Of a DNA stretch of 64,000 nt, positions 1 through 64,000 are shown in pieces. Positions within the stretch are counted from its first letter, which is position 1. The number at the start of each line of letters is the position of its first letter. A program made the position numbers and the translations under genes. This stretch comes from Psammoneis japonica (Eukaryota), in the NCBI GenBank assembly GCA_008632985.1, contig QPGO01000012.1, positions 310,001-374,000 on the forward strand, written 5' to 3'. Under the pieces are notes generated by a model. The model was not told where the DNA came from. It ran no database searches and was given only the letters and a program-made list of their open reading frames with translations.

Positions 1-3000
1 TGACCAGCTGAGCTGCGTGGCTCATGACACCTTCTGGGTTGCAGGGTTCTTTCACCCATGTGCATCAGAGTTCTCATTTGACATCACAAACAGGAATTGC
101 TCCTGTCATCTGGGCTGCTTTCTGTCACTCCTGCACCCATCAGTTTCCAATGGTGTGATGGTCTTGCTGCCCTGAGATGTGTGGGATGTTTTTGTTGATT
201 GGATGGCCTTGATGTTCCATGAATGAATTTGTCCACAGAATCATGGTCATTGCACCATTGACTCCCACACGTTCATCCTCTGTGCTGCTTTGGGTGTTGA
301 GCTTCTGCTGCATTTTACATGGCCTGCACTGCTCCATTGCCCATGGCCACAACTCCTCCTGTGTGGCTCTTGAAATCCAGGTGCATTGCAAATGACACAT
401 GCGCATGCCACTTGATGACTCAGAGGTTCTTCATGCTCAATGCAGCAACTTTCAGATGCTTGAGACAATGGACTGGCTTTCCCCAGTCCTTGTTGGTCAT
501 CTCACTGACTTGTGTGCACAATGCTGTGATGGTTGGGTGCACATCCATGTGGCCTCTCTTGGGCATGAGTGGTCCCTTGGCTGCCCACACACAGAATGTT
601 TTCACTTTGTCTGTTGGCAATCTCATGCTGCTGGTGTCAAATGGGTTTGCCCTGCTGGCATCATGGATGCATCTGCACTCTTGATCTCATCTGGAAACTG
701 ACCGATCATCTTGTGAATGCAGTTGGTCATGTGAACCTTTGCCTTGCACTTGTGGCTGAAGTCCAGGGTTATGTTAAGGCAATCATGCTTCTTCCCTTGT
801 GCTGCAATGACTTTCCCATGACTTTCACAAATCTTGTTTAGCCAGCTAAAAAATTTGTCATTTGCTTTGGGTTCTTGCAATCAACAACAGGTCATCCACA
901 TGGAAACGCACAGTGTGCCACTTGCCGTTGACCACTCAACTGACAATGAATGGATTGCTTGGGTTGAACTTAAACCCTGTCTTCTTCAAGTCCTTGCAAG
1001 ATTGCTTGCACCAAAGCAGAGCCACAAGCAACATGCTGCAAATGGCTCCAATGACTTGGACACAGTGATTCTCTTCCTCTTTTCCATGACCACATGTGTG
1101 GCCCATGTTGGTTGCAATCAATGATCCAGTCTTTGCCTTCCTTGGACTCTGGAATCAATGTCTGTGTAAATGCATTTGGTGCATTGGCACTCATTGTGCC
1201 ATGCCCTTTCACAGTGTCAACAATGGCTGTCATGAGGAGCATCCCTTCCAGCGATGCTGTTGGGCTGGCTCTGACTCATCCTTGTCCAGCCAATCTCTGG
1301 TTGGTTTCCCATTGCAACCATGTGCCCTTTCATGTGACCATCTTGCTTCTCCATCAGTGACATCAAGGCAATCACAGCCTTTGTCCTTTCAGTTGGAGCA
1401 ACATCTTTGACTGACATTGGTGCAAAGCACACCCTGTCATGGAGTTGTCTGGGGCCACAATCTCCTTCTCTGAGGCATCGTGCCCCCTCTGGCCAAACAC
1501 TTTGTGGCCTTCATGCATGGCAAATGCTGCTGGGCAAAGGAAGTGCCCTTTCCTGATTGGAGTTGGTTGTCAATCTCACACATAAATTGTGCCAGTGCCA
1601 TTTCTGCATTGCACTCAATGTCATCCCCTGGATTGGGACTCATGTTTGTTCATGTGTGACAGCAGCATTTGAGCCTGTTTTGTTCGTGTTCTGCTTCTGC
1701 GGTGTCTGCCACTCCTGCAAATTGAACTTTCTTCTCTCTGTGTTGCCTGATTTGATGTTGAAGGAAGCACCAATTGAGTGTTGTGCGCTCCTGGTCACTC
1801 TGCCAGGCATGACTTTTCTGCCTCTTCCTCCAATCATCTTTCTCCTTCCCATCTCTTGTCTTTTTGGGCAGGATTCATCATCTTTTTCTGACTCTTCATC
1901 TGACTCATCATCTTCACCATGTTGCTTGTGGTCTTTTTGTTCTTTGACTGCTTGGCTCTCATGCTGTTGATCGGGGCTGTGATCTGTCATCAGCCAGGAT
2001 CTTGTTTGCTTCTTCACACTCATCATCCAAGTCAGGTTTGTCTTTGTGGTTTTCATCTTCTGACTTGGTCATGCAGTTGGCATCATTGCACTTGTTTTCA
2101 TTTTCTTCTTTGTTGCTTTTGTCTTTGCTGTTGTGCAGGTTCACAGTGCAGTGGCCACCCTTGGGAATGGCTCATCTTGAAACATGGTCACAGATGTGTG
2201 CTGTCAATGCCGCACATCCATGGTGCTTGTCAGGTTGTTTTCAATGTGAGAAACAGGACAAATTCACCAAAAGCAAATTCAAAATGCTTGTCATGGTCAA
2301 GCTTTCTTCATTGCATGACAGTGTGTGAACTGTGCATGTCAGAAATTTCTTCCTTCTGAGGGTGCATGTTTGCCATGACAGTGTTCTTGATCATGGCGTG
2401 CTTGCAAATCAACCCAAGTGTCATCTTGCATGGCAGGTGGTGCACAGTGGCTCAAGTTTGCTCCTTGATGGTCTCAGTGCTCCTTGCAACTTCAGGAACA
2501 CAGTCATTGGTGTTTGCAGACATTGGGGTCACATTCAATGAAGAAGTCAATCTTGAGCAAAGCTGTGTTGTGCTGTTGCAGCATCATGTCCAGTGTGTTG
2601 TGTGCATTGACATTCTTCTTGGACCTCAGTCTCACACTTGATTGGCACTCAATCATCTTGTCAATTGCATGCAGCATCTTAAGTCCACATGCTTCCACAA
2701 TGCAAATGCAGAAGATCATGCCTTCTCTCTGTTTCTTGCGCATCTCAGGTGGGATGGTCACAATGTCATTCCTCTCATTGGAGCAACACACATGTTTGGT
2801 CTTCCCTTTTAATGCATCTGTTGGTGGACCCCAAATGGCCACCATCCTCTCCACATCTTCAGGCATGATGGACAAGACCTTTGCCTGATTTGATCATGGA
2901 AAGAGCTTGAAATCCCTCACACTGGAAATTCCAGCTTTGCAGCACACTCTGAGTGCTTGCTCAGCATTTGCTGCCTCCCTCTTGGTGCAGCCTGGGGAGC

Positions 3001-4760
3001 TCTGCTCCACCATTGGAGCTGCTGCAGTTCCAGATGTGCTCTTGTGTTTTTTGTTGCTCTTCTTCTTCTTCTTCTTCTTCTTCTTCTTCATCATCATCAT
3101 CATCTTCTTCTTCTTCTTTGACAGCATGCTGACATGTGACTTGCTTTCTTGGAGATCTTTTGCATGGTCAAAGAACTTCTGGCTTGATGCAAAGGCATGC
3201 AGCCCACAATGTTGTTCACTCTGAACACTGCAACTTGTCTTCTAGTTCTCTTGTCTGGCAGCTGGGGCTCATCCACCATTCGCTTGTCACATGTGACACA
3301 GCACTTGCTCTTTGCATCCACCAAGCTGAGGACGTTGGCCATCACATTCCATGAACTGAGCTTCACATCCCCCCATCCAGGCATGACACAGTTTTTGTCT
3401 GAAAAATCCACTCCTGCATTCATGGACAGACCAATCTTGATTTTTGCTGGCTGCACATTGTGCACCAATCTCCAGGTTGCTGTCATGCTGAGGGTGGAAC
3501 CATTGTCAAGGGTGCCAACATCTTTGTTTGCTTGGCCCATGCTTGTGTCTGATCTCTCATTGTCAGCTGCAATGATGCAGTGCTCCTGCTTTGACTGGAG
3601 TGGGTTGATTGGTCAGATCTGGTGATGTCAACACTGACATTGTTGCCATCCACCAAGGAGGCATCTTCATCTCATGTTTGTGCAAGATTTCATCCCCTTG
3701 TGTCCAGCTTCTTTTTCTAATTCTTGAGTCTCATTGTTGTTGTTGTTGTTTTTGTTGTTCATGCACTCACTGTTCCTCTTGTTGCACCTTTTGTGAGAGG
3801 ATTGTTGTCTTTGGAGTGGCCCAGTGGTGCATCCATTGCCTGACCCAGGGTCTTTGGACAGTTGTTTTTGCCAAGGCTGCAGTTCCTCACAAACTCTTCT
3901 TTGCACTCTTGCAATGGCAATTGCTGCTGTTCTCTGTGAACAGGAATGTTGTCCATGTCTTCAATGTCATCTCTTTTGGCATTCTCTGGGCTGGCAAAGC
4001 ACCGTCCTTGGTGCTCCTTGGCATTGGAAACAAGTCCATCTGGCATTCCATCTCCAAGACCTTTGCTTGCAACATGTGGCTGATTCTTGAATCTTGACTG
4101 GCAGTCATTCAGTGACTCATTCTCTTGTTGTTTCATGTCCAGTGTGTTCTGCAGGGACTTGGTGAGTGCACAGAATGGGTTTCAACCTTCAACAGCTTGG
4201 TTGGGTCATCCCCTGCTTGGGTGACTGGGATCACCTTGCACTCTCTGCTTCATCAGCTTGTGGTGTGTCAGTCATCTGCCTCACTTTGTCATTGCACTCA
4301 TGTGGCTCCACTCAGCACTGGCATTCCAGCTTTTTGTCTTCTTGCCATTTCTTTTCCAGCTTGGTTGGGTGATCCGCAGCTGTCTCAGCTGCTGGTCTGT
4401 CATTGTGGACATGTCTGAGGTTGGTTTCTCAGAAACACAGTCCTTGCATTTCAGTGTTTGAAAGATCTCACCAAATGCATGCCTTGTGTGTGCACTCCTT
4501 CTGCATGTGACAGATGATCTTCTCCTTGATGTCTTCACACATTGCATTGTGAGTGTTGCCATTCAGTGATGAAGGACAGAACTTCATCTCAGGCTGAAAC
4601 ACTTCTTGGCATTGGTCTTCTTCTTCTGGTTCTCAGAAGACCTGCGACTCTTGTCACCTCTTCTGCAACCATGTCCTTGGCCTTGGTTGTCAGATCCACC
4701 ACTTCCTCTGCCACTCATTGTGCAGGCACTCAGCACTCAACCAACTGCGGGTGAAGCAGT
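1..4760 (-). mobile_element. Highly degenerate Ty1/Copia (CoDi-like) LTR retrotransposon relic (gag-protease-integrase-RT-RNase H fragments)
   Basis: Minus-strand fragments in Copia order: gag-like (3600-4560), protease-like LDNGSTLS (~3500), integrase-region EDVERMVAIWGP..ALKGKT (2504-2875), RT-like fragments (~620-1430, e.g. LKKTGFKFNP) and RNase H ILWTNSFMEHQGHPINKNI (140-406). Many frameshifts; LTRs not identified. Confidence 0.8.
3058..3119. repeat. Compound trinucleotide microsatellite (TTC)n(ATC)n(TTC)n
   Basis: Directly visible; reads poly-K/M on the minus strand inside the Copia relic. Confidence 0.9.
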
Positions 4761-5479
4761 GTTGCAAAGCACCAAACATGGTGCCAGTGGCGGCTCTTTG
4801 GAGTGAACATTGAACCAGCAAGTCAAGGTCACCAAAAGGGAATCCTGTTGGGCTTCCTGTGCTGCTTGCTTCTTGTTGCTCTTGCCTTGGCCACATGCAG
4901 TGGCCATGGGTTGCCCAGAAGTTGTGGATGCAAACTTGTGATGCAACAGACACCCAGTGGCTCCAATCAAGAAAATTGCACCACAAACCAGTGATTTGCT
5001 TCACAAAGAATGAGATCAGCTGAAAGGTGAGAAAGATCAATGATGATGAAATCCTGATCACAAAGAGTCACTGAATCTGTCATGTCAGGAGCCATGGCAT
5101 TTTTTCTTCAATGCATCTTAATCTGGGTCTCTCACATTTCCCATCTTCTGAATGTTCCAACAAGGGGAGGATGTGCCCCAGCTGTGCACAAACCAAAGTG
5201 TGCACAAAAACAGCATTTGTGCAATTTTTGCACAGTCGCTGACTTTGGCCAAGCTTTTGCCACCAAAAGCACAGATTTGTCCAAATGTTTGTGTTTTGCA
5301 ACACTGACAAGACTGTCACATTGGTGTTGCAACATCATCATTTTTGTGCTGTCAATGTTTTTCATTCTTGCAACAAACCATCTGCAACACAGAAGAAATC
5401 ATGTTGAAGCTTTGCAAGCACCAAATGTTTGCACATCAACATGGAACACTCATTTGTGATTCTTTCCAGCAGGCATTCT

Positions 5480-6549
5480 GTCAGTGAAGGCTTCATTGCA
5501 CCCAATGCAATGTCGTGCAATCAGCACTGGCTCTGCTGGGGAATTTGTGATGAGGATTTGAGTGCCACCAAAAAATGTCATTTGACTGTCCATGCTCTGG
5601 ACACCTGTGAAAGCCCATCTGCACAAGCATTTTCCATTGGCACTCTTCATGCACAAGCAACACATGTCATTTGTGTTCAAATGGAGTGTCATTTTGTGCA
5701 TCACCTGGGGCTGCAGCACATCAGAGAGGCCACAAGAACATGTCAATGATGAAGAAGTGTGCTCCTCTTGTTGCACTTTTTAGAGCCCTTTGCTCCCAAA
5801 TCACCCACACATTTCCTGGGGATCACCCAACAGTGTGAGGGGATTGCCCAACTGCCAGACCCATGTGGGAGCTCTCTTCAAAAGAGCACCAGCTCATTTT
5901 TTTTTCCAGGGCATCAGAGCATGGTGTGGTGTCACCTGTTTGTTCCCATGCTTCCCCTTGTGTTTTCTGGAGGTTTTTGTCACAGAGTGCAGGTGGCACG
6001 AGCCACAAGCCAAAGAGCTCCCCACAGACTGGCTGCAGTGGACAACATGTGTGCTGGCAAGAAAGAGTGAGAAGAAGATCTCAGAGAGATCGTCATGTCA
6101 TTTGCCTGCACATTTGGTGCCAGGTTTCAAGAAAGAATTCCAACAGCATGTTTAATTGTCAGATTTTTGGCAGCCTTGCACCATGATTCTGTCGAGTTTG
6201 GAGGTGCATCGACTGTTTTGAACCGTCTTTGCCTGCCGACGACACTTTATTGACGCATCCTCCGACTCGCACATTTAATCATATGCAGACAGGTGGCCAC
6301 ATGGCCACTGCGCTGAATGCGGGCCGAACTCATCTAGTTAGGTTGAGCGCATTTTGCAGATAAATTGTGACAGCATCATACTTTCTTCTACTGCCTTTAC
6401 TTCTATTCCCCTCTACCCCAGAGCTGCTTCTAGCATTGGAACCGAGGATGTCCAACAAAGAACCCCTGGCATACGATCATATCTCAACAAGCTGCCCTAA
6501 CAGAGGTGGTCACGAGGAAAGTTTGGCGGAAGCTACAGGGGCATTAGGT
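5480..6549. repeat. Partial spacer/3' flank of the kinase tandem unit (copy 1)
   Basis: Homologous to ~26790-27975 and ~52790-53998 (e.g. caatcagcactggctctgctggggaatttgtga...; catgtttaattgtcagatttttggc). Confidence 0.9.
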
Positions 6550-9060
6550 TCATGCACCGTCGACACATGCTGCGATAGTGGACTTCATTTTCCAGTGACG
6601 AACAGTCGAAAGGTCAATGCCGAGGAGCACCAAGCTCGCGCTAGGTCTGTCTTTGTACTCTTTGCATAATTCTGAGAGCTCATCAATGGTTGTCTGTCGG
6701 CGATAATCAAAAGCCTTGTCTCCTTTTCCAAGTCTCGCCTTGAACTCGGGCCATGGAACTGGGTTTTGTTCACGCAACGCGTACACCGTGAAAAGCAAGG
6801 ATGCAATGTCATGCTTGGCTGAGGGCTTCCAGGACTGTTTGTTAGCCTTACCATGAACCTCTGCGTGTGCAAATGGAAGCGATCCACGGAAGCCAATTGC
6901 ATCTTCATTTCCCAGCGCCGCACACCCCCAGTCAATTAGAATGAACCTAGCACCGTCAAACATGACGTTACGTGGCGAAAGATCCAAGTGGTAAACATCC
7001 TTTTTGTGTGAGAACGACAAAGCATTTGACATATCCGACCACAATGAGAGCAGAGTCTGTGATTTGTTAGGGCTCGACATCAAAATGGTAAGAGCTGGTC
7101 TGCCTCTCGGAGTCATCAACAAGGCAGGAACTGTGGCTGTCGTGTCTCGAACCAAGTATTCGACGAGCCCAAAGCCTTGGACTTCGGGGATGTACTGGCA
7201 TGTTCCGTACCGGGCCAAAGCACGAAGTGCCATGAGCTCTCGCTCTATTTGTCGTACTTTACCATTTGCAGACGCTTTTACAAATATTTTGTTGTTGTCC
7301 CCAGCAACCGCGTAAACAACGCCATGTGAGCCAGAGCCCAGCAGCTGACCAACTGAATGTCGGACAGAGACCCCGTTTGAGCTGCGTTTTCCAATAAAGG
7401 TTGCGCTTTGTGCCTCTGAACCAAAAAACGATATGCCAAGATCCTCATCCTCTGAGTGTAGAAGCTCCCACAAGCGACGCATGCCCTCTGGTACATGAGA
7501 GCCAGGGGCGGAAAATACACTCTCTGATGAGAACAGTCGAGGCTTGAGATATATCTTGTCGGAGTTATCAGTAACAAGGGCGTCGAAGGCAGCTTCATCA
7601 ACCAGAGGCCACAATGCAGTCCGATTGAACTTCAACTCCGCACCTGCGGTCCCCATCCCAACCAACTCCAAGGATATTACCTGAAGGTAGACTGGCGTTA
7701 CTATCAAACCAACATGTTTTGAGTTGACGCCTACATCCCCAATGTCAAAGGCCACCAAAGCCCTTTTTGCCAGATGCCCGCAAACTTGTTTTGATACTTG
7801 GTCGTGCAAAACTTGAGCATTTTGACCCGCTCGACGAACGTTCTTGACCTCTTTGACCAACGAAATTTCCTGATTCAGCAGCACAGGTGTGAACGGATTG
7901 AGGTGGTTGGACTCAAAGTCGACAAATCGTTTTGGACCCAACTGAGATGGAGGCATGTAGCGCTCGCGTCGTAGGTCGGATCTGCCATGCAAAGAGCCAT
8001 CACTGTCTCGAATCTGAGATAAGGCACGGAGAAGTGCACCAACGATCGGCTGGACAGCATCTTTCTCTGTCGCAACGGCAGTCGGGAAATGTTTTTTAGA
8101 AAAAAAGCGCTCGGGCTTTTGGTCTGCCCACTCGAGGATCGCCTTTACAGTGTTGTTGACAAGTGTAGGCCTTTTTTTCAACGCCTTGGCGTCGACCTTC
8201 GCTGACTTTTCGACCAGACGGCACCAAGCCTTGGAAAAGAGTTCAAGTTCATCGGTTTGTTGGGGTGCTTTTGATGGCCACCATGGTTGAATTTGTTCGG
8301 ACGACCCGAGAAAGTTATGCAGGTTTTCTTGTGACTTTGATGGACTCGGGATGTGCAGGCCTCGCATCATTTCGCGATAGTCGCTGTCGGATATCTCGTT
8401 TTCATCATCTATTGTACGTGTCCCCGTTTCAGTTTTGTTCGACAAAGCAGCATATGCTTTCAAATCATCGCGAATTTCCTTGATTTTGTTGCATATTTCG
8501 TCGATCGGGATTCGGCACGTTTCGTCATACAAACGATAAACCCGCTCCCAGCAAAACGGGGACTCCTTCATCATCTGATGGTTTTCGTTGACCCAGTTCT
8601 GCAAAGGAGACACGTCAAGGCCGAGATAAGTCGGTGATGAAGGTCCAAGTGGGCCTCTACGCAGCGTTTGAAGAAGCTCCTCGGCAATTTCCGGAGTTGG
8701 CGCTTCTTCGGATGCCACCTTGCCGATTGCTGCAAGCGTTTCACGAGCAGTCTCCTGTCTATTTTTCCAAACCGCCAGCGTTCCGACCATTTTACGCTCC
8801 TCCAATTCGTTGAGAAACATAATGCTGCTACTCACCCCCGATGTAACCACGCCCGCTTCGTCGGCTTTGCGCTTCCTCGCCGACGCATTAGCAGCAACAT
8901 GACCGATACTCGGACGATGATTGGTTGAATTCGCAGCTGCGTCGTCGCCGTTGCCCGCCGCTGCGCTGCTACTGGACGGTTCTATTAGCGCCGCCGCTGA
9001 GGCAGCCATTAGTGCTGCTTCCTGGGGAGATGAAGAATCCACAGGCTGGATCATGGCCAT
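6550..9060 (-). CDS. REase-fold + protein kinase protein (Crinkler/CR-effector-like), copy 1, intact 836 aa
   Basis: Kinase motifs GSGSHGVVY (Gly loop), FVKA (beta3 Lys), RE (alphaC), HLDLSPRNVM (catalytic loop), IDWG (DFG), GSLPFA, HDIASL. Upstream TEKDAVQ..RERY..FVDF..KEVKN..KQVCGHL matches the PD-(D/E)xK pattern. Normal TpA/CpG content. Confidence 0.9.
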   Translation of the reverse strand: MAMIQPVDSSSPQEAALMAASAAALIEPSSSSAAAGNGDDAAANSTNHRPSIGHVAANASARKRKADEAGVVTSGVSSSIMFLNELEERKMVGTLAVWKNRQETARETLAAIGKVASEEAPTPEIAEELLQTLRRGPLGPSSPTYLGLDVSPLQNWVNENHQMMKESPFCWERVYRLYDETCRIPIDEICNKIKEIRDDLKAYAALSNKTETGTRTIDDENEISDSDYREMMRGLHIPSPSKSQENLHNFLGSSEQIQPWWPSKAPQQTDELELFSKAWCRLVEKSAKVDAKALKKRPTLVNNTVKAILEWADQKPERFFSKKHFPTAVATEKDAVQPIVGALLRALSQIRDSDGSLHGRSDLRRERYMPPSQLGPKRFVDFESNHLNPFTPVLLNQEISLVKEVKNVRRAGQNAQVLHDQVSKQVCGHLAKRALVAFDIGDVGVNSKHVGLIVTPVYLQVISLELVGMGTAGAELKFNRTALWPLVDEAAFDALVTDNSDKIYLKPRLFSSESVFSAPGSHVPEGMRRLWELLHSEDEDLGISFFGSEAQSATFIGKRSSNGVSVRHSVGQLLGSGSHGVVYAVAGDNNKIFVKASANGKVRQIERELMALRALARYGTCQYIPEVQGFGLVEYLVRDTTATVPALLMTPRGRPALTILMSSPNKSQTLLSLWSDMSNALSFSHKKDVYHLDLSPRNVMFDGARFILIDWGCAALGNEDAIGFRGSLPFAHAEVHGKANKQSWKPSAKHDIASLLFTVYALREQNPVPWPEFKARLGKGDKAFDYRRQTTIDELSELCKEYKDRPSASLVLLGIDLSTVRHWKMKSTIAACVDGA

Positions 9061-9223
9061 GGTTTAATAGCCCTGCTCCCTACTTGGAGAGTGGAGAGCT
9101 GTCGAAATTGAAAATGGAATCAGCATGCGCGTGGAGCGCGCGCGTGGAGCCACTCTTTCGACTTCCGAGTTTTTCGCGAGACCTGGAAGTTTTCGTTTTT
9201 CAGGCACGTCGTGTCGTTCGGTC

Positions 9224-9449
9224 CGAGTAAATCTAGCTGCCGGATGGGCTCAGCCACTCACAGTCTTAGCATGATAGCGCGAATACAACTAATAAGATGC
9301 TTCTAGGCCTGTTGCAACTACAATGGATGCAACAAGTGAAGACCATTCTGCGGTCATCGGCGTGTCACCCCCTGCGTGCCACATCACAGTTTCTCCACAG
9401 CACCTCCTGGAGCACACTGGGCAGTCCCTGATGCATCGGATTTCATTCG
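9224..9449 (-). repeat. 3' LTR of Copia element
   Basis: Direct repeat of 15871-16094. Confidence 0.92.
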
Positions 9450-9634
9450 GTCCCCTCGAAATGTACCTGACTCGTAAGGCGCAATTCGATCCTATGTTGT
9501 GTCAGTGGTCCAACCCAAACAATCTTGACTTGTCGATCGATGTAAAAACCCTTGCTGGGGAAAAGCCGCCAATTCCTGAGCATGGTGCAAACCCTCGCTG
9601 GGGAAGAAACTCACCACCGCTCCACACATCCATC

Positions 9635-12600: not shown

Positions 12601-14114
12601 AAGGAATGTGCAAGACATGGTCTCACATGTCCATGTAAATCCGCAGTCCCACAGTCGCCGCGGCACTTGCTTCTTGACCATGATGTGGAGCCACTTGCGT
12701 CCAACCTCGCGCACAACTCCTTCCGCAGGATTCTGGTTGTGTCGATCGGGTTCAATGACATGACAATCTGTGCTTTCCTTGCGCACGGTCTTCATGAACT
12801 CCGTGCCAGGTTTCGTTTGCTCCTTAGATCCATCCATCAGGAGTTTCTCTGGCACGCCAAATTCCTGGCAAAACATCTTAAGAGCCTCGCCAGCCTTGCT
12901 CTTCTTGTCCATGGGATAAATCGCAGCGAAGTGTTGCTTGTTTGTAAAGATCTGGGCATGTCGAATGCCCTCCAGCGAAACCACCTTGCCATCAACCGTG
13001 TCGGTTGCCCATTCACCCCGTAACCCAGGCTTCGTGAACATCCGATCGGCCCGATGGCGTCAACCCATTGGCATCAACGCTGACCTGATGAGCTTTTGCG
13101 TGGTCTTCTTGAGCGTGCTTGCTGCTTGCTTGAGTCCCATGCACCATCGTTCACTTGAGTCAGCAGCCGATGCATCACTGTGTCTCTCCTTGGACATGAA
13201 TGTCTTTGGGAGTGCTGAGTCTTCAGGTCCTTCTCCGATTGTTTCCGTGGCGGAGACCTGGACTGTTGACTCCGATTCCACATTGACGGCAGCTGTGAGC
13301 CTTGATTGGACTTGATTGACCCCACAAATGAATTGCTCATCGCAACAGTCCCGGATTGAGGGTTGCTGTGGGCAGGATCAGCTTTGAACTCATGTGTCAG
13401 ATTGGCGTGGATCGTCGCAATCGACCGAACTGGCTCCATTTCCTCCTCCGCAGATCGTCGAGTTCCAATGGATTTGGACTTGACGGTCTGTGGATCCCAA
13501 GGTTGTTGGGAGGTCATCTGGATCTTGGGGCACTCGTGCAATTCCTGCTCTGCAGGAGTGCGAGCAGCCGCAACAATGTTGGTCCCCATGGCTTCAAGTG
13601 GCATCATGAAAGATCCATCCTCCGCAAGGATGTGCAGTGGCGAATCGGAGCAGGGATTGTCCTGAACCTCAACACCAAAGTGCCGCAGCTGGTTTGGGTT
13701 AACCAGCAAGTGCTCCATGGAATCCGGCATCCACAAGCCCTCGTGGAAGACCAGAATGAATGTTGCTCTCGATGTCGGTGACGTCCACGCCGTGGCTGCC
13801 GAGACAATTGGGACACTCTCAATGGAATCGCATCCCTCGTTAAAAGGCGACACGTCACATTCTCGTCCAGAACAACCCAAGAGGGTAAAGTTTTGACCAA
13901 AAACAGTGGTGTCAGCATGCGAATCCAATTCAAGGCGTCCATGCTGTGCCTTGCTCATGTCACGGATGTGAGTGATTTGTGTGGTGTCAGACCGCGTTGC
14001 CGAGACACGCCGTGTCAAGGCAATGACCTCACAAATGCGTTTGTCACAGCCACGTGGATGCTGTTCCTTTGATCGATGCAGCTGTCCCCCACTCCATTGT
14101 GGCAACCACAACAA
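9635..14114 (-). pseudogene. pol: Copia pol (protease-integrase-RT-RNase H), frameshifted and MITE-interrupted
   Basis: LELDSHADT (protease), WATDT..MDGSKEQ..QNPAEGVVRE (integrase DDE), CHMIFDIK, ALCGLKSSGA, LVYVDDVL (RT), VDADHAGN..RSHTGI..FCDNEA..DLFTK (RNase H). Confidence 0.9.
10781..11002. mobile_element. 222-bp MITE inserted in Copia RT
   Basis: Termini CTGCCC...GGGCAG; duplicated CTTG on both sides (removal restores KPSKAD); subterminal inverted repeat caaatttacgtagaagcag / ctgcttctacgtaaatttg. Confidence 0.8.
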
Positions 14115-14146
14115 GAAGTTTGTGATGCAACAGAGCAGGGTCCAGC

Positions 14147-16730: not shown

Positions 16731-16755
16731 GCAGCAGCAGCAGCAGCAGCAGCAG
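16731..16755. repeat. (CAG)n microsatellite
   Basis: gcagcagcagcagcagcagcagcag visible directly. Confidence 0.85.
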
Positions 16756-50100: not shown

Positions 50101-50139
50101 CACAAAATTTCAACTCATCATAAATGCTCAAGTGCACGG

Positions 50140-56509: not shown

Positions 56510-57114
56510 GGTTTAATAGCCCTACAGTAGCCCTACTGGTAGAGCTGTCGAAATGGAATCACTTCGAGTTTTTCGGGGGAAATTGTCACTGTCAATTTTC
56601 TACGGCACGCCGCCACACGTCCTCGCCAAATAACCCGGACATTACAGTCATTTTCACTTTTCAGCATCCGTGGAACAATCGTGGTTTTCGCGGCGCCGCG
56701 CGGAAGCACGAAAAGCACGCACGCCTTGTGCGGCTAAGGGCCCTTCCGTTAGGCGTGCCCTTGCGAATCCTGCGAAACCTGCGAACTACATTACGAGGCC
56801 GCACATTTTGACAGAAACGTGAAGGGACAATTAAGGGGGGTCAGCCCCGCGTTTATCCTAAAATCACAGTGGCATTTGAATGACAATGTTGACAAGAGTT
56901 CATTTTTGAATGCAAAAATTGTTCCTCGCATTCACACCCGATCGCCGATCGCACACGAAAACGAGAACACCAGGCACCGCGATCGAAGCACGACGATGAC
57001 GACAATCGTCGACATTTCTCAAAAACGCAGCATGTCGTGCGCCAACTTTTCATGCATGTGACAAAACAAATGAGAGTTGGTGCACGGACTGCCCCCGTCA
57101 CAGACTCATGGCTT

Positions 57115-58352
57115 TGCAATGTGCAGCTGCCAATGAGAGTCAATGCATCACGGCGACGTGTTGCAGCCTTTAAATGTCACAAAGGGCGTGTCAAAAACAA
57201 CCTTTTGTCTGCATGCACACTGCATTGTGAATTCACAGTGGAGTGGTTCAATGCGTGACCATTGGGCAGGAGGCCAGGGGTTCGAAACCCTGAGTGGGAG
57301 TTGTCTGCAGCAACGTTGATCACTGTCGAACGCGCAAAACTCTGTGCAGTTCTGCACATTCCTTCGTACGCACCCACACTGTTCCGCCAAAACCGTGCAG
57401 TGTCAGGCTCGGTCTGCAGGTGAACCGTGCTGGATCGGATCGCCGGATCGGATCGCGCCAGAATTCCGTCAGTCGACAGGTGGAACCGGATCGGATCGCA
57501 GATCGGATTCGACATTTTGATGAGTCGCAAAACGACGTAAGTTTCAAGATTCCAAATTCTCAAGAACAACAAAGCACTGAAATGGCGAACAACAGAGAGA
57601 GTGTGGCCATGATGCTTCACATCTTGTCATGACGAGACAACATGATGACAGAACCATGCTGTCATTGCTGCTTCACATGCTTGCTTGACCGCATCATTGA
57701 GCATCATTGTCGCTCAGTGTTTGCAGCACGCCAAGGAAGAAAAAGCCACCTCTTTTGCAGCTCAGAAACTGACGCTGTGTTTTCGTGTTGAGGTTTTGAA
57801 TTGCATGACAAACACTTGTCATTTTGCTCATTCAATGTTTCTCCAACAAATCTTTGCGGCATTGTCGGTTTGACAAGCTGTTCCATTGCCATGCGACCTT
57901 TTTCATCTCCATTTCAAGCATGGGAAGAGCAAGGCTGCAATGCCAAGGAAGTTCTGTGCCCTCATGGCTGAATGTCATGCCGCCCTGTGTCACAATCGTG
58001 TGATGTTTCGCCACTGTCGTGATGACGGCACGGAATCTTCCAAATTCGATCCGACATCCGATCCGAGATGGCGGATCAGTCCCGCGAAGGCCACGGATTG
58101 ACTTTTTGACTCGATGGACCAATGTTTTAATGGGTCATGAAGGAGTCGATCCGGCGATCCGATCCGGCTCGGTTCACCTGTAGACCGAGCCTCAGCACAC
58201 GTCAGCAAAGAGCCGTGTGGATGCGTGACACATGGGGAGGAGTGCAACACACAGCTGCTGACAAGAGTCAGTGCATCACGGCGACGTGTTGCAGCCTTTA
58301 AATGTCACAAAGGGCGTGACAAAAACAACCTTTTGTCTGCATGCATGCTGCA
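57115..58352 (+). mobile_element. TRIM copy 1, interrupted by a MITE
   Basis: ~105-110-bp TG..CA terminal direct repeats; PPT GGGGAGGAG before the 3' repeat; TSD GCTT (57111-57114, 58353-58356). Confidence 0.85.
57406..58191. mobile_element. PIF/Harbinger-type MITE (786 bp) nested in TRIM copy 1
   Basis: 22-bp TIR ggctcggtct(g/a)caggtgaaccg; 3-bp TSD TCA; subterminal (CGGAT)n/(ATCCG)n repeats. Confidence 0.88.
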
Positions 58353-59374
58353 GCTTGCTGTTTTTCACCGCGGTGAAGTGTGGTGAAATTCAGGAAAAAC
58401 GGTGCAAAACATGAGCCATTCGGCCGCATTCAAGCTAAAAAGAGCAGCAACCAACCAGCCTTGATGACTTTTCTCGCATTTCCCTTGCAGAAATTTGCCC
58501 ACAATTGTTGCGAACTTGCTGACGTGTTCATGCTCTGGGTGGGACCTCGCACTGCTGGGCTGTGGCACAGTTGTTTTTTGTCATCTGTCGTGTGTTTTGC
58601 ACACACATTTCTGCATGTTCCATTGTAAAAAATTGTTCCACACTGCCTGTTTTGCAAAGCCAAAGGCTTTCTGTTTTCTGCATTTGTGACAATGAAAACA
58701 CGCTGGGCATGTTCTTCAATGTCTGAAGAACACACCCGGGCACGCTGTCAACAATGTGCTTCAAGTGTGGAGGAGGAGACACGTTCGCAAAATTGCCTCT
58801 TTTTCTGTTGGTGATCATTCATGTTTTCATTGCTCGACAATTTTGCTGCCGGAGCTCGCACACGGAATTCTGCGGGCCCAATGTCACAAAAAGTCCAGCC
58901 TGGGGCTGGAGCCCATCTGCTGACAGGCTCCAGTCCCAGGTGGGACTTTTTGTGACATTTGCCCCGCAAAATTCTACGTGCGAGCTCTGCAGTTCGTACT
59001 CTGGTTAATGGACACATTTGTCTTCGACATGAAATGAACGGCCAAGTTTGCAGCACATGTGTCTCTGTTCGTACTCGAAGTTTTGGACAATGCGCCTGCC
59101 CTGTGCCATTCTCAAGACACTCGAGAATGGCACAGAAGAAAAAAATGTCAAAACTTGTTGAATGGATCGCCTGACAATTGCACCATAAAATGATGCAAAA
59201 TTTCGCCAAAATCACGTAGAAGTGTGCGTGCGCGACATGCGACGCGATTCAAAAAACTGTCGATGTCACAGTTCAGCAGTGCGAGGTCCCACCTAGACCT
59301 GGAACGCGTCTGCTTGCCAGTCGATTCAAATTGACTGGTGGCAAGCTCGCAATCTGCAGAACCTGTGTGCAAAT

Positions 59375-60349
59375 TTGTGGTGTGTTCACTCTGGCTGTGC
59401 ACCTCCTGAAGCTGAAACTGGGTGCATCACGAAATGTGCTAGAAAACAATCAACACAAAAAATTGATCGCACCATGTCGTCTTCAAGCGACTTCACTGAC
59501 AACACAAATGGCACCAACCAAGTGCCACCAACACAAGACAGCAATGATGATGGCATGCCTCATGACAAGGACTTGGGGCTTGTGTCAACCCCTCACCTCT
59601 TTGGTCAAAAGCTGTTCTTCTCCCTGCATGTTTGTGACAGCAAAGAACTGTCTGCAGAAGAAAAGACGCTTGCGGATGCCAGTGTCTTGTCAATGAAAGT
59701 GGCCGGTCTCAGATCTCTTTGCCACAAGTGCAAGCATGTTCATGATGACAATCCTGCGCCAAAAAACATTTACACCACAGGCAATTCAGGCCACTTGAGG
59801 AAGCATCCGATGATGTGGTTCTGCATCTTCCGGCAGGAAGAAGCACATGTCGAAAAGCGCCCCTTCAGCACTTCCAAGAACTGGAGCCAGGCAGAAGATT
59901 CTCGCATCATTGAGATTTTAAGTGACCCGACCTTCCAGAAACCCCTCCAGCACCTTCGCCAAAAGGCTCCACATGTTGTGCTTGACGAAGGCAACCCGCC
60001 CCTTGTGGCTGTGTGCCGACATTTCATTGCTGTTTTGCACAACAATTTTGACAAGTGCAAACCAACCCATCGGTTTCCAGATGACCCACTTCTCAAGGCC
60101 TTCAATCCCAATGACAAGACCATTTCTTCCCATGCTCCAGATGTCTTGAAGTTGAGGGTTGGACAGCTTTGCAGCAGGTTGACAGCAGTGCACAAGGTTG
60201 GCATGAAGAGCGGCTTGGATCCGGAAGGTTTTGAGAGTGCTCTTGATCTGACCAACCCACTGGACCAATCCATTCTCTGTTGGTGGAAGGCAATTGACCT
60301 GAGTGATGATTCATCTGTTCTCAACAAGTTTGTGCATCTCCTTCATTAA
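59375..60349 (+). pseudogene. Hypermutated ORF of unknown function (324 aa), possibly part of the adjacent Helitron-like element
   Basis: Protein-like composition from MSSSSDF onward, but nearly Tyr-free; no recognisable motif. Confidence 0.4.
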
Positions 60350-61343
60350 ATTTGTCAGTGAATGCACACATTTGACAGTTTTTTCTCAAATTGGTTCCTC
60401 CTTTGTGGCAGGAACTCTGGACACAAATTGAGGAGGTGTGAAACCCAGGCTGGTTTGGATTGCCATGCGCACGAGCATCAGAATTTAGAGCTCTGATCTT
60501 TGCTTGCCACCAATCATTTTTTAAAAAAGTTGCATGGTTAAATGAGGGGTTGCACCCAATTAACATCTGATGAGATGCCACATTAAATTTCTAAGATCAC
60601 ACAAAAAAATGGGGGTCAAACATTGTTTTTCATGTGTGGATGTGTTGCAACAAAAGACGTGGGCTTTCCAATTTGTGTTTCTGTTTGGTGGTCTTCAGTG
60701 CCTGGACACATTGCAAAAGAGTCGTGCTTTCCAATTTGTGTGTGGCTCTGTTTGGTTGTTCGATTTTGCCAAGCGATGATGAGAGAACGGTTCTTTGCCA
60801 TTTGTTTCCATGCAGTTTTGTGTGTTTCTTCCATTGAAATGAGGTGTTGACACTGTGTCTTAGATTGCTCTTAATTGTTTGTCATCCGGGCACAGATGCA
60901 GATGGCCACAAACTCCTCATTTAAATGCTTGGAATTTTTCCCAAAAATTAGAACAAATTCCCAGATGCAGTGATGTGAGAATGTCATGTGTCAACTGGAC
61001 TGCAAAATGTCATCGCACTTTTCGTTGGTGAAGTGCATGACACTCCTTCCTTTCTTCAACTGGATCAGGGCATTGTGCCCATCTGGCAGGCCACACAGAC
61101 TTAAATCTTTCTTCAGCGGTTGCCGAAGATGCGGGCCATTTCTGGTCTTGACTCTGGAGAGCATGACATGCACCCAGTTTTGGGTGCAGCTCCAGCTGGG
61201 TGCAAACACACATTGTCAACACCGCTTTCTTGCAACTTGTGTCCCGCAGTTGCACTGCTTGTTGTGAATGACAGCTGGCTCACTTTTAGTCTGAGCGCGT
61301 GCTTCTCTTTTTCCTCATCCGTCAGCTGTTGGGTTGGGTCTTC

Positions 61344-61788
61344 TGCAACACACAGCCACTGATGAGAGTCAATGCATCACGGCGACGTGTTGCAGTTTAA
61401 ATGTCACAAAGGGAGTGACAAAAACAACCTTTTGTCTGCATGCACACTGCGCTGTGAATTCACAGCAGAGTGGTTCAATGCGCAACCATCAGGCAGGAGG
61501 CCAGGGGTTTGAAACCCTGAGTGGGAGTTGTCTGCAGCAACGTTGATCACTGTCGAACGCGTGGAACTCTGTGCAGTTCTGCATGTTCCTTCGCACGCAC
61601 CCACACTGTTCCGCCAAAACCATGCAGTGTCAGCACACGTTAGCAAAGAGCCGCATGGACGCGTGACACATGGGGAGGAGTGCAACACACAGCTGCCAAT
61701 GAGAGCCAATGCATCACGGCGACGTGTTGCAGTTTAAATGTCACAAAGGGAGTGACAAAAATGACCTTTTGTCTGCGTGCACACTGCA
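61344..61788 (+). mobile_element. TRIM copy 2 (445 bp)
   Basis: Terminal direct repeats tgcaacacac...acactgca; PPT; TSD CTTC. Confidence 0.9.
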
Positions 61789-62012
61789 CTTCTAAACAGG
61801 CTCCAAAAGTGCAAGATTCAGGCTTGAGTGAAAAGGTGGACAGACCAGTGGTTTTGTTGCTGTGCTTGAGTTCTGCATGATCCACCTGGGATGCTGTGAC
61901 ACCTTGAATGAATGTCCCACAATCTGGGACAACTTTTGATGAAGTTTTTCCTGGTTTGAGCATGACTTTCACTGTGGTTGCTTGTGTCCCATTCGCAGCG
62001 CCATTTGCCATG

Positions 62013-62460
62013 TGCAACACACAGCTGCCAATGAGAGTCAATGCATCACGGCGACGTGTTGCAGCCTTTAAATGTCACAACGGGCATGACAAAAACAACC
62101 TTTTGTCTGCATGCATGCTGCACCATGAATTCACAGCGGAGTGGTTCATCGCAACCATTTGGGCAGGAGGCCAGGGGTTCGAAACCCTGAGTGGGAGTTG
62201 TCTGCAGCAACGTTGATCACTGTCGAACGCGCAAAACTCTGTGCAGTTCTGTGTGTTCCTTCGCACGCACCCACACTGTTCCACCAAAACCGTGCAGTGT
62301 CAGCGCACGTCAGCAAAGAGCCGCATGGACGCGTGACACATGGGGAGGAGTGCAACACACAGCTGCCAATGAGAGTCAATGCATCACGGCGACGTGTTGC
62401 AGCCTTTAAATGTCACAATGGGCGTGACAAAAATGACCTTTTGTCTGCATGCATGCTGCA
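62013..62460 (+). mobile_element. TRIM copy 3 (448 bp)
   Basis: Terminal direct repeats; PPT; TSD CATG; removal rejoins the helicase frame (..HNENM|ANG..). Confidence 0.9.
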
Positions 62461-64000
62461 CATGTTCTCATTGTGCGGGATCATGACTCTGCATCCTTTG
62501 CGTGTGCACAAAACTGGGTCAAGCCTTCCAGACTGCACGTCAACATCGCTCTCTCCACAATTCTTCCAGAATGTTTTGCACACAGGGAAAGGTCCATGCT
62601 GTCTGGCTCCATCACACACTTGTGAATTGTTGCTGAAAATGGCCAAAGAGTCCAAGACTTCTCCATCTCTTTGGTGCAATTTCCTGGCTCTTTCTTCAAA
62701 CAAGGCTGAGTCAACAGAGTCTCTGTCTTTGTTCCTGTGTGTTGCACATTTGATGTTCTCTGGGAGCTCTTGACCATTTTTCACTGCTCTTTTGTTTTTT
62801 TTTCCAATGTCTTTGAGTGCCGCCTTGCCATCCCTGAATCGTTTCAGCAACTCACCCCACTCTGGATCATTGCTGAATCTGTGCATCCCATGTGGCTCGA
62901 TGCAACAGTTCACCCATTCCTGGAATTTGGCACAGGGTTCTTTGCAAGAGGGTTCATGCCATGTCCCACTGGCTTGAGTTGTCTCAGATCACCTGCAAAC
63001 ACTGCATTCATGCCCCCGCAAGGTCTCCCCAAATTTGATTTTAAAACAGATGGATTAGCGTGCAACTTTTCCAAGTCTCTTTTGCAAGCAGTGACATTTT
63101 GTTGACAATCAACAAATGGGTGTCACTCCAGCTTTCCATTTGTGTTTCTGTCATTTCTTTTTTCCTGTTTGAACAAGCCACTCTGTGAGTGGTGTGCCTC
63201 CTTTTAGAGCAGTTGCTGCTGCTCCAGTCATGGCAGCAACAGCCATTGTGTGCATTGTGAATGGTTGTTTGATTGGAGAGCAATGTTTGCTTGCACGCAA
63301 AACAACAAGATCAATGACAGTCAATTTCCCACTTCATCCTGCTCCATGCAAAAAACAGACATTGATTGTGTGGTCCGTCATGCACGTGCTTCAACCAACT
63401 TCGTCAATCTCCTGTGTTCTTTGTCAAACTCATGCATGCCTGATTCCTCCTCTGGCATTTCCGCTGGCTTGTTCTCCCAGAGCATCTTTGCAGCATGTCA
63501 AAACGAATGTTCCCACAACAACTTCAAATGCACGTCTTTGGTGTGGGTCCAGCTTGGCTTTTCTTGACCAATTGATCATGCTTTTGATGGAGCCATTCAC
63601 TTCATGGACATCAACCATTTCTTCTGAATTGGTTGTGTCTTGGAAGGATTGTCAAATGCGCTGAGTCTTGGCCACATCTGATTGTTGCTGCTTTCGCCAT
63701 TTTCTTTGTCAACCTCATCCTGTGGCGGTTCCATCATTTCCACAACAGGTTCCAAATTGATGACAGTGTCTCCACAAGCAGCAGCAATGTTCATGTGTGC
63801 CAAGTGTTGACATCCTGCAAGATGACTTCCTTTTTGCCTGGTGTGTTTGCCGCTTGAGTGTGACAGGACGGTTGCTTTGTCATTCATGTCTGACCCACCC
63901 TCGTGTTTGCATTCCACCAATTCTTCCAGGAGAGCATCAAGCAGCTGTCCTTGCGGAGCTGTCTTGGTTTCATCTTCACTGTCGTTTGCCCTTGTTTGAT

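Follow-up and report, generated by a model that had tools for sequence, protein, structure and literature searches.

The 64-kb stretch of DNA analyzed here (hereafter the window) raises the question of why the dinucleotide TpA is almost missing from its transposons and spacers and yet persists in its protein kinase genes. Across the whole window, 734 TA are found where 3963 would be expected (observed/expected ratio, O/E, of 0.185), alongside O/E ratios of 1.53 for CA, 1.49 for TG, and 0.63 for CG. In 500-bp bins, TpA O/E falls below 0.25 over 46.0 of the 64 kb, where CA+TG O/E ranges from 1.15 to 1.99; several kb lie at 0.00–0.03, and two stretches (24501–26500 and 18501–19000) contain no TA whatever. 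A sequence-only reading had described TpA as near-absent from transposable element (TE) and spacer DNA, with about 15 TA in positions 1–6150, and both the binned ratios and the count for 1–6000 bear this out (14 TA; TpA O/E 0.035, CpG O/E 0.075, CA+TG O/E 1.93). The same reading called TpA normal in the kinase genes: it is indeed far above the level of TE DNA, and the sliding O/E check shows that genes and TEs are not equally low, but values of 0.34–0.77 across the five kinase copies are better described as ordinary to lowish. Long open reading frames (ORFs) in TA-free DNA arise partly because TAA and TAG have been lost.

Table 1 Features of the 64-kb window and their TA status.
Feature	Coordinates	Strand	Remarks
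Repeat-derived spacer, near-devoid of TA and CpG	1–6000		14 TA (~400 expected), 25 CG
Kinase copy K1, 837 aa, Pkinase, spared	6553–9063	-	TpA O/E 0.38–0.57
Ty1/Copia-like LTR retrotransposon	9224–16095	-	LTRs 9224–9450 and 15871–16095; 227-bp direct repeats
Repeat S copy 1, TA-free, CpG-poor	18329–21042		TA resumes at 21060, just beyond repeat end
Kinase copy K2, spared; ORF split in two (563 and 305 aa)	21368–23877	-	
Repeat S copy 2	24300–26862		Preceding TA at 24292; none in 24501–26500
Kinase copy K3, spared; truncated to 416 aa	28277–29524	-	
Two copies of a 444-bp repeat	29658–30798		29658–30101 and 30355–30798
Second retroelement	30121–38777	-	238-bp direct repeats 30121–30358 and 38540–38777
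TA-poor and CpG-poor repeat DNA, Copia fragment at 41088–41930	39001–46000		Composition; tblastn
K4 flank with 12 TA>TG/CA changes, absent from sister copies	46232–46551		CpG undepleted
Short insertion, 14-bp inverted ends differing solely by CACA versus TGTA	46587–47014		K4 only
Kinase copy K4, 853 aa, spared except 3' end	46934–49492	-	
Repeat S copy 3	50141–52864		1 TA in 50501–52500
Kinase copy K5, 837 aa, spared	54002–56512	-	
TA-poor repeat DNA, TpA O/E 0.0–0.14	57001–64000		Short repeats of 100–450 bp; CpG variable, 0.25–0.84

Two retroelements lie in the TA-poor DNA between 9 and 39 kb. Judged by its predicted architecture, the first is of the Ty1/Copia type, with LTRs, a gag-protease-integrase-RT-RNase H polyprotein, and an RVT_2-type RT. 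Its ORF at 11248–13059 has 8743 homologues, the full-length members of which carry RVT_2, and a tblastn search with a 1368-aa RVT_2 homologue covered residues 2–1348 within the element. Pfam searches of the window's retroelement ORFs at E-values up to 1 found no domain, and no target-site duplication was confirmed at the flanks of the Copia-like element. This element combines a TpA O/E of ~0.1 with a CpG O/E of ~0.75, and its word depth of 1500–2800, compared to ~70, corresponds to ~25–40 genome copies. For the second retroelement, TpA O/E is 0.06–0.33, CpG O/E 0.59–0.86, and GC content 54–63%; the ORF at 32229–34151 has 224 homologues, one of them with RVT_1, and the named ones are from diatoms. 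Since its CA+TG excess is modest (1.15–1.41), part of the TA poverty of this second element may be original. A diatom host is plausible from the transposon homologues, although such elements can pass from one host to another.

Comparisons between repeat copies identify the sites of change. The LTRs of the Copia-like element are 90% identical, with 19 of 20 mismatches at TA/CG-derived YR steps and a non-YR difference at one position only. Because the LTRs of a single insertion differ almost solely at TA sites, the change must have followed insertion and affected both strands of the DNA. Two further repeat pairs (29658–30101 versus 30355–30798 and 27425–28037 versus 45974–46586) each have 26 of 29 mismatches at such steps, in agreement with the earlier statement that TA-derived sites hold most of the differences between paired repeats; non-YR mismatches are few (1/20 and 3/29), with no rise in other A:T>G:C changes. 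All ten of the quoted strings that we searched were present, at the LTR pair (9288/15935), the B2/B1 repeats (29694/30391, 29761/30458, and 29778/30475), and the inverted ends (46587/47001). Where one copy has CA and the other TG, the ancestral step may have been CG as readily as TA; such double differences number 0 in every kinase-core pair and 2–11 in TA-poor pairs. In the 29658/30355 pair, which has kept its CpG (26 shared and 5 singly changed), there are 4 doubles compared to ~0.1 predicted by hand calculation from CG decay.

The loss is also one-sided. Within the 444-bp pair, TA in the gene-proximal copy faces CA or TG in the distal one at 13 sites, and the reverse is never seen; two repeat pairs yield TA losses of 13:0 and 14:0, compared to CpG differences of 2:3 and 2:4 in the same pairs. 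When the K4 flank is polarized by its sister copies, all 12 TA are found to be kept in the other four, and the K4 products (7 TG and 5 CA) point to both strands. Four further TA>TG/CA changes lie in the 3' end of K4 (47078–47605), and CpG O/E is 0.59–1.63 across the flank and the short insertion despite the loss of TA.

Retroelement proteins provide an outgroup. At conserved columns, defined as Tyr in ≥60% of ≥15 homologues, the window has Cys 12, His 4, Tyr 4, Ala 1, and Phe 1 for the Copia-like element (22 columns) and Cys 6, His 2, Tyr 2, Ala 1, and Phe 1 for the second retroelement (12 columns), i.e., Cys 18, His 6, Tyr 6, and other residues 4 for the pooled 34. None of the 68 + 85 homologues has Cys or His at ≥30% of those Tyr columns. 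Other conserved residues of the two elements were largely retained (Trp 16/16 and 23/25; Gly 42/43 and 42/44). The scarcity of Tyr in TE proteins reported earlier was reproduced, with 1 Tyr in the 491 aa of ORF 14150–15622 (0.2%) and 1 in the 850 aa of ORF 36051–38600 (0.12%), compared to 16 in the 837-aa kinase (1.91%). Outgroup and sister-copy polarization, one-sided loss, and LTR divergence thus uphold the proposal of a directional, post-insertion change from TpA to TpG or CpA that affects both strands and spares genes. As far as these fixed differences within one 64-kb window can be read, the direction of change is from TA to TG/CA, and the process appears far faster than background, by ~100- to 1000-fold per TA as a rough estimate from tiny counts. 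In the saturated S repeats, parsimony returns 10 apparent CA/TG>TA changes versus 1 TA>TG; we attribute these apparent gains to TA that survived or to ordinary C>T change.

The kinase genes behave differently. The five copies are 95–97% identical over 2.5–3 kb, only 24 of 75 mismatches between the cores at 6241–9223 and 21053–24028 fall at YR steps, and singleton changes in the cores comprise 7 TA>TG/CA versus 11 CA/TG>TA. Five near-identical copies being spared, duplication alone is no trigger, and the label “reverse RIP” given by the sequence-only reading fails in the duplication trigger that it implied. A comparison of TA positions with repeat borders places the stop or start of TA ~10 bp or less from the ends of repeat S.

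Changed sites also show a flank preference. On the strand of the changed A, the next base is usually C or T and seldom G, which gives T[A]Y, or R[T]A when viewed from the T strand. In an event table that takes TA as ancestral in every TA-versus-CA/TG pair, and in which changes inherited by duplicated copies may count twice, non-genic RTAR sites became CA rather than TG at 14:2 and non-genic YTAY sites TG rather than CA at 15:2 (Fisher p = 1.6e-5), compared to 12:8 and 8:10, respectively, for genic sites (p = 0.52). Surviving TA are enriched in YTAR contexts, and the 18:6 ratio of Cys to His at conserved Tyr is as the flank rule predicts for TAY codons (p = 0.023).

Low CpG has a separate origin. 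CpG O/E is 0.04–0.3 in ~20 kb of TA-poor DNA, where CG-versus-CA/TG differences are common, while TA was lost with CpG retained in the Copia-like element (0.75) and in 57001–59500 (0.84). Since CpG is co-depleted in only part of the TA-poor DNA, two processes are superimposed: the low CpG of older segments would represent ordinary decay of methylated CpG, and the TA loss, from these compositions, is both faster than this decay and separable from it. Methylated-CpG decay accounts for the low CpG O/E and the CG-versus-CA/TG differences, and also feeds CA and TG, but is unable to remove TpA; it was rejected as the cause of the TpA deficit because TA is gone where CpG is kept. In Phaeodactylum transposons, 5mC is DNMT5a-dependent according to PMC9998398.

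Taken together, these patterns probably reflect a targeted mutation process of the host nucleus, whose targets are integrated transposons and DNA derived from repeats, where TpA becomes TpG or CpA, with nearby genes spared. The process acts on DNA after integration and on both strands of one locus, halts within ~10 bp or less of the S repeat ends, and is weaker in repeat copies adjoining a gene; its target is presumably marked by silent chromatin or small RNAs and not by homology. Its most likely chemistry, although at somewhat less than an even chance among all readings, is enzymatic deamination, whereby adenine would become hypoxanthine in DNA and be read as G at replication. Mobile DNA would then be permanently inactivated through replacement of Tyr by Cys/His and of Ile by Met/Thr/Val. 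However, TA is palindromic, so that T>C on the opposite strand fits the sequence equally. The main alternative is thymine oxidation, in which a TET/JBP-type dioxygenase would act on silenced transposons and turn the T of R[T]A into 5-hydroxymethyl- or 5-formyl-uracil, with G mispairing or faulty repair then leading to T>C. All data fit this change as well as A>G, and 5-formyluracil mispairs with G; we know of no 5-hydroxymethyluracil (5hmU) in diatoms, and of no report of TpA loss in dinoflagellates, where 5hmU is abundant. There is a precedent in dinoflagellates, where 5hmU made by a TET/JBP homologue is found on repeats and contributes to transposon silencing (PMC11572971), and early work found T in TA and TC to be preferentially replaced (PMC11572971, PMC11071213). 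Conversely, the base-resolution 5hmU map from Breviolum is described in PMC11071213 as lacking sequence preference. Overall, we consider thymine oxidation unlikely, and enzymatic adenine deamination remains the preferred reading.

Three other explanations are each far less probable. An artefact, with TA truly present and either a modified base misread in silenced DNA or polishing errors in repeats, would suit a signal restricted to repeat DNA, which is the hardest to polish. Moreover, the supporting public run (X1) may be the source of the assembly, its platform being unrecorded, so that a match is not independent proof. Nevertheless, X1 contigs of ~0.5–1.4 kb at a word depth of 68–72 agree with the window at 0–1 differences in four essentially TA-free stretches (460–1439, 1420–2447, 3160–4522, and 4828–5284, with 6, 1, 2, and 1 TA versus 65, 66, 85, and 34 expected), whereas per-strand misreading would be expected to mix CA and TG at each site and shatter such contigs. 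The signal also obeys a flank rule, stops at element ends, is one-sided between repeat copies, and takes differing resolutions in copies of the same family, which makes an artefact very improbable. Similarly improbable is the absence of any dedicated process, i.e., a deficit due to native composition, selection against TA, GC-biased gene conversion, or UV damage at TA, plus CpG decay. Mild TpA under-representation is found in most genomes, including the kinases here, and some distant Copia relatives reach a TpA O/E as low as 0.36–0.42. However, eleven related metagenomic Copia loci span 0.36–0.83 compared to ~0.10 here, and the closest relatives have a TpA O/E of 0.63–0.78 and a normal Tyr content (median 3.45% versus 0–0.5% here). 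Replacement of conserved Tyr by Cys/His would be opposed by selection, and neither the lack of a rise in other A:T>G:C changes nor borders sharp to ~10 bp would be expected. Least probable of all is RNA editing before integration, with retroelement dsRNA edited by an ADAR-like enzyme, then reverse transcribed and inserted, even though retroelements are the clearest targets and ADARs favour U before the edited A (bioRxiv 10.64898/2026.01.13.699255). It is contradicted by the LTRs of one insertion differing at TA sites, and a non-retroelement gene flank and the short inverted-repeat element are affected as well. The strands are also affected about equally (CA 609 and TG 581 over the Copia-like element, summed bins), and ADAR-type editing was rejected on this count and on the LTR differences. 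Finally, ADARs prefer G after the edited A, the base disfavoured here.

A process of this kind is already in print for the alga Bigelowiella natans (2026), and the window probably adds a new lineage with saturated transposon targets. Going further, it is possible, although we hold it as a tentative view, that diatoms or one diatom lineage have a constitutive DNA-level editing defence that acts at T[A]Y and erases TpA from silenced transposons independently of cytosine methylation, that this is the same system as in Bigelowiella, and that its effector is a natural adenine deaminase working on double-stranded chromosomal DNA. If so, the system would be old within the SAR supergroup or have spread by transfer, and a natural double-stranded DNA adenine deaminase would exist where such enzymes have hitherto come only from laboratory evolution. 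Heritable hypermutation defences known before 2026 targeted cytosine only (RIP, APOBEC), and a second unrelated host would make a class of a one-alga curiosity. The window offers ordinary transposons as targets, near-complete erosion, and a measurable flank motif; the search for the enzyme is narrowed by this motif (T[A]Y/R[T]A) and by borders that resemble those of chromatin. Transformation and CRISPR tools are available in diatoms, so that the mechanism would become testable. In practice, dating transposons in such genomes by LTR divergence would make them appear far too old, gene callers would be misled by ORFs that lack stops in TA-poor DNA, and mutated retroelement proteins escape Pfam.

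Among known systems, RIP in Neurospora and other fungi likewise hypermutates mobile DNA irreversibly, by transitions on both strands that favour a particular dinucleotide and leave a strong compositional scar. Unlike the present process, RIP changes C>T mainly at CpA, creating TpA instead of destroying it, and targets any duplication, whereas duplicated kinases keep TA here. It was therefore rejected, and the earlier statement that neither RIP nor 5mC decay could give this pattern holds. ADAR and TadA/ADAT enzymes, including laboratory adenine base editors, convert A to I, which is read as G, and favour a target A that is preceded by U/T. In the case of bacterial TadA, the natural site in tRNA is U-A-C, in agreement with T[A]Y; the enzymes are known to act on RNA, and on single-stranded DNA only after laboratory evolution. 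The 5hmU of dinoflagellates is similarly a non-cytosine modification linked to repeats and silencing, with an old report of TA/TC preference, but what PMC11572971 relates of it is an epigenetic mark, without mention there of mutagenicity or TpA loss.

The closest parallel comes from B. natans, where integrated viral DNA undergoes TpA-restricted A:T>G:C hypermutation (Mettrop et al., bioRxiv 10.64898/2026.01.13.699255). Of the 231 mutations that mutation-accumulation lines gained in two viral regions, 230 were A>G or T>C, all of these at TpA, at a rate ~1000-fold above background, and low-TpA coding sequences were enriched for reverse transcriptase and DDE endonuclease. The same preprint compares the process with RIP, proposes an ADAT2-like deaminase, and refers to work reporting that amphioxus ADAT2 edits DNA. 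As described there, the two cases differ in host (a chlorarachniophyte versus a probable diatom), in target (giant-virus and virophage inserts versus LTR retroelements, a short inverted-repeat element, and spacers), and in depth, with a TpA rho of 0.45 for the NCLDV region and a cluster cut-off of 0.43 versus 46 kb below 0.25 here. Mutations were observed arising in the laboratory in B. natans and are seen as fixed differences here, while the CpG co-depletion and flank preference of the window are absent from the preprint's main text. Shared by both are TpA>TpG and TpA>CpA changes on both strands, near-exclusively A:T>G:C; a restriction to foreign or mobile DNA with neighbouring genes spared (here, in one window); and a long-term scar of low TpA together with elevated CpA+TpG. 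The TA process of the window is probably the same in kind as that of B. natans, run to saturation on transposons.

TpA is depleted across the window, which holds 734 TA dinucleotides against 3963 expected (observed/expected ratio, O/E, 0.185), with O/E values of 1.53 for CA, 1.49 for TG and 0.63 for CG. A sequence-only reading of this DNA had contrasted transposon and spacer DNA with kinase genes, and this contrast was recovered here: TpA O/E was <0.25 over 46.0 of the 64 kb (500-bp bins), versus 0.34–0.77 in the five kinase gene copies (K1–K5). Bases 1–6000 contain 14 TA, whereas about 400 are predicted from base composition, and TA is absent altogether from 24501–26500 and 18501–19000. All ten of the strings quoted in that reading that were searched are present in the window, and its tyrosine counts were confirmed on recount. 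The depletion is real, extreme, and striking.

Pfam, applied to sets of 13 and 19 long ORFs, identified kinase domains only; relaxing the threshold to E = 1 yielded no transposon domain. Long ORFs in TA-poor DNA are partly an artefact, since without TA only TGA can close a frame. However, ORF 11248–13059 had 8743 homologues (HMMER, 1.8 billion representatives), the full-length ones being polyproteins of ~1350 aa with an RVT_2 domain, and residues 2–1348 of one such polyprotein map by tblastn to 13883–9644 on the minus strand. Based on this match and on the 227-bp terminal repeats, we assign the surrounding element, on sequence grounds, to Ty1/Copia-like LTR retrotransposons (“Copia”). Read depth (1500–2800 versus ~70) suggests ~25–40 genome copies of Copia. 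For the second element, ORF 32229–34151 had 224 homologues, one of them with RVT_1, and those with a name were all from diatoms (Fragilaria crotonensis, Cylindrotheca fusiformis, and one MMETSP transcript), while ORF 36051–38600 had no homologue in a word-indexed search. Among the Atlas clusters closest to the Copia ORF, Bacillariophyta was commonest, the phylum being known for just 6, 4, and 2 members. Since both the named homologues and the nearest Atlas clusters point to diatoms, the host is probably a diatom, as judged from its mobile elements only. Retroelement ORFs in 9638–15622 and 30887–38600 were blank in Pfam (E up to 1), whereas HMMER on the raw proteins returned thousands of relatives; a divergent element lineage, altered further by hypermutation, escapes standard domain annotation.

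Coordinates of kinase copies and TA-poor elements, in window positions
Feature	Positions	Strand	Length	Description
K1	6553–9063	minus		Pkinase, ~837 aa, intron-less
K2	21368–23877	minus		Pkinase, ~837 aa, intron-less; two ORFs after split
K3	28277–29524	minus		Pkinase, ~837 aa, intron-less; short by ~970 bp
K4	46934–49492	minus		Pkinase, ~837 aa, intron-less
K5	54002–56512	minus		Pkinase, ~837 aa, intron-less
Copia	9224–16095	minus		Ty1/Copia-like by sequence
Copia terminal repeats	9224–9450 and 15871–16095		227 bp
Copia-type fragment	41088–41930			tblastn
Second element	30121–38777	minus		Retroelement
Second element end repeats	30121–30358 and 38540–38777		238 bp
Repeat S, copy 1	18329–21042			TA-poor repeat
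Repeat S, copy 2	24300–26862			TA-poor repeat
Repeat S, copy 3	50141–52864			TA-poor repeat

The sequence-only reading had also held that copies resolved in opposite directions reveal an ancestral TA. Taken alone, a CA-versus-TG difference between copies is ambiguous, as it can equally descend from CG. For this reason, direction was established by three independent routes (outgroups, sister copies, and one-sidedness), and all three upheld TA>TG/CA. At conserved tyrosine columns (≥60% Tyr among ≥15 homologues), Copia displayed Cys at 12, His at 4, Tyr at 4, Ala at 1, and Phe at 1 of 22, and the second element Cys at 6, His at 2, Tyr at 2, Ala at 1, and Phe at 1 of 12. Control residues in the same two alignments were retained (Trp 16/16 and 23/25 columns; Gly 42/43 and 42/44). 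None of the 68 + 85 homologues, with columns anchored by tblastn, had Cys and His together at ≥30% of conserved Tyr columns, and their median Tyr content was 3.45% and 2.29%, versus 0–0.6% in the window elements. Among kinase copies, aligned over trimmed blocks that exclude non-homologous flanks which had inflated K2 changes, 12 TA retained in other copies had become TG (7) or CA (5) in the K4 flank (46232–46551), and a single change ran in the reverse direction in the whole four-copy block. Between 29658–30101 and 30355–30798, TA in the first corresponded to CA or TG in the second at 13 sites and the reverse at 0, and between 27425–28037 and 45974–46586 one-sided TA loss was 14:0, while CpG differences in these two pairs were 2:3 and 2:4. 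CA-versus-TG doubles numbered 0 in every kinase-core pair and 2–11 in TA-poor pairs, including 4 in the 29658/30355 pair versus ~0.1 predicted from CG decay by hand calculation. When parsimony was applied to the three S copies, both TA and CpG seemed to have been gained, and the method was judged unreliable at saturation.

Targeting is local, with sharp borders. S copy 1 ends at 21042, with no TA from before 20700 to 21060; copy 2 starts at 24300, the last upstream TA being at 24292; and the alignment of copy 3 to copy 2 begins at 50303, the closest TA ahead of it being at 50259. Being duplicated does not by itself trigger the loss, since the kinase copies (2.5–3 kb, 95–97% identical) were spared. 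The Copia LTR adjoining a kinase promoter retains TA 7:2 relative to its partner, the gene-proximal copy of the 444-bp repeat at 29658–30101 and 30355–30798 retains it 13:0, as counted above, and in K4 the mutated tract extends ~670 bp into the 3′ end of the gene. This pattern would suit a chromatin domain better than a search for homology. The kinase family itself is rare, with only 8 homologues among 5.8 billion proteins (≤55% identity, none named); Atlas matches to it are generic kinases, and its clusters carried no taxon. K4 is the only kinase copy with a 428-bp insert (46587–47014), which is CpG-rich (O/E 1.63 in 46501–47000) but TA-poor (0.14); previously called a hAT element, it does have inverted ends, of 14 bp, but no transposase to back the hAT label.

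Loss of TA also depends on flanking bases. Across the 46 kb with TpA depletion, the 218 surviving TA are concentrated in YTAR (TTAA 53, CTAA/TTAG 62, CTAG 21) and nearly absent from RTAY (ATAT 1, ATAC/GTAT 2, GTAC 7). At 73 non-genic sites with TA retained in one copy, taking TA as ancestral in each pair and possibly counting inherited events twice, RTAR became CA rather than TG at 14 versus 2 sites, and YTAY became TG rather than CA at 15 versus 2 (Fisher p = 1.6e-5), whereas genic sites were unbiased (12:8 and 8:10, p = 0.52). The base 3′ of the changed A was C at 30, T at 22, A at 14, and G at 7 of the 73 sites, the palindrome confounding position −2 with +1. For TAY codons the flank rule predicts more Cys than His, and the count was 18:6 (p = 0.023). 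T immediately precedes 5 of 6 surviving Tyr codons, which hints at a further TTA effect. A purine two bases before A had been considered as the change-favouring flank, and was replaced when contradicted by the direction data. The S repeats carry a strand skew (CA 248–262 versus TG 181–195 in 19001–21000, 24501–26500, and 50501–52500) opposed to that of 1–6000 (CA 657 versus TG 763), and these skews may stem from the flank rule acting on an already skewed original sequence.

An artefact would arise if TA were actually present and a modified base misread in sequencing. Four Logan contigs from a public run, X1 (980, 1029, 1363, and 457 letters, word depth 68–72), matched 460–1439, 1420–2447, 3160–4522, and 4828–5284 with 0, 0 (one gap), 1, and 0 differences, over stretches with 6, 1, 2, and 1 TA versus 65, 66, 85, and 34 expected. 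Since X1, whose platform is unrecorded, may be the assembly’s own data, it does not represent an independent platform. Nevertheless, a base misread on both strands would place a mixed CA/TG signal at intervals of a few bases, and contigs of this kind would not be expected to survive that, which argues against misreading. Where these repeats occur elsewhere in the genome, their variants comprise 827 transitions versus 204 transversions. Run X2, from the same sample as X1, covers only the kinase region 6004–9338 and almost no repeat DNA, as would fit a transcript library, although none of the runs is recorded as RNA; run X3 covers next to none of the window.

Editing of an RNA intermediate before integration would place the changes earlier than the LTRs indicate. 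The two LTRs of an insertion start out identical, and since those of Copia now differ, change took place in the chromosome, after insertion. Their 20 differing positions were 13 TA-derived, 6 CG-derived, and 1 other, consistent with the earlier claim that LTRs differ mainly at TA sites, and 5/5 differences between the 238-bp repeats lie at YR steps (TA- or CG-derived sites). Both strands are altered within one locus, the K4 flank, and CA and TG are about equal across Copia (609 versus 581, summed over bins). In the LTR pair, TA sites were intact in 2 cases, altered in one LTR in 9, and oppositely resolved in 2, while 6 CG sites were intact and 6 altered in one LTR: TA loss is faster than CpG loss. 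About 57% of TA was lost per Copia LTR versus ~0.3% change elsewhere, a ratio of a few hundred based on very small counts. The Copia LTRs, with 1 of 20 differences outside TA/CG-derived sites, are 90.3% identical; dating by LTR identity in this genome would greatly overestimate insertion age.

TA loss is independent of CpG loss: CpG O/E is 0.04–0.3 in 1–6000, the S repeats, and 42–46 kb, and 0.6–0.9 in Copia, the second element, and 57–59.5 kb, all TA-poor. Transposons of the diatom Phaeodactylum are described as CpG-methylated via DNMT5a (PMC9998398), and, read most simply, the data reflect ordinary decay of 5mC in older DNA, superimposed on a faster TA process. The ~2.2 kb between Copia and repeat S (16096–18328), which matched nothing elsewhere within the window, is TA-poor with patchy CpG (O/E 0.14–0.91).

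As to mechanism, an enzyme guided by silent chromatin might deaminate adenine to hypoxanthine, which would give A>G directly. We tentatively favour this chemistry because the change is direct and because TadA, ADAT, and ADAR enzymes prefer T before A, like the changes in the window; T[A]C is the natural tRNA context of TadA. Adenine and thymine chemistries are inseparable by sequence, since TA is its own complement, and the main alternative, although rather unlikely, is thymine oxidation by a TET/JBP-type enzyme. Such an enzyme is described as marking and silencing dinoflagellate transposons (PMC11572971, PMC11071213), and an old report of a TA/TC preference for the dinoflagellate thymine mark is cited in PMC11572971.

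The signature was absent from 153 homologous proteins and 11 metagenome Copia loci (TpA O/E 0.36–0.83). It is therefore not characteristic of these element families in general, nor of every host that carries them. Metagenome Copia relatives L008–L011 (31–35% identity) displayed CpG O/E of 0.18–0.38, TpA of 0.36–0.58, and CA+TG of 1.39–1.54, which may reflect either a mild form of both processes or just decay of CpG. For Bigelowiella natans, a study of mutation-accumulation lines reports that two viral regions integrated in the genome mutate at ~6e-7 per site per generation, with hypermutation in 11/15 lines and 230/231 mutations being A>G or T>C, these all at TpA (bioRxiv 10.64898/2026.01.13.699255, Mettrop et al.). 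The same preprint describes 124 genomic clusters of low-TpA, high-CpA+TpG windows, with reverse transcriptase and DDE endonuclease enriched among low-TpA coding sequences, likens the process to RIP, and proposes an ADAT2-like DNA adenine deaminase. The kind of process proposed in the sequence-only reading has thus already been published. Outside subscription journals, our literature search returned only this preprint, and none for diatoms, other lineages, or A-to-G retroelement hypermutation; its main text makes no mention of diatoms, CpG, or flank context, although its supplements may hold flank data. Judged from one window, with the host inferred from mobile elements, the present case joins this kind, first described in 2026, with a probable diatom host and with transposon targets at saturation. 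Its new features are the flank rule, a TA loss uncoupled from CpG decay, duplicated genes that are spared, and an effect of position close to genes.
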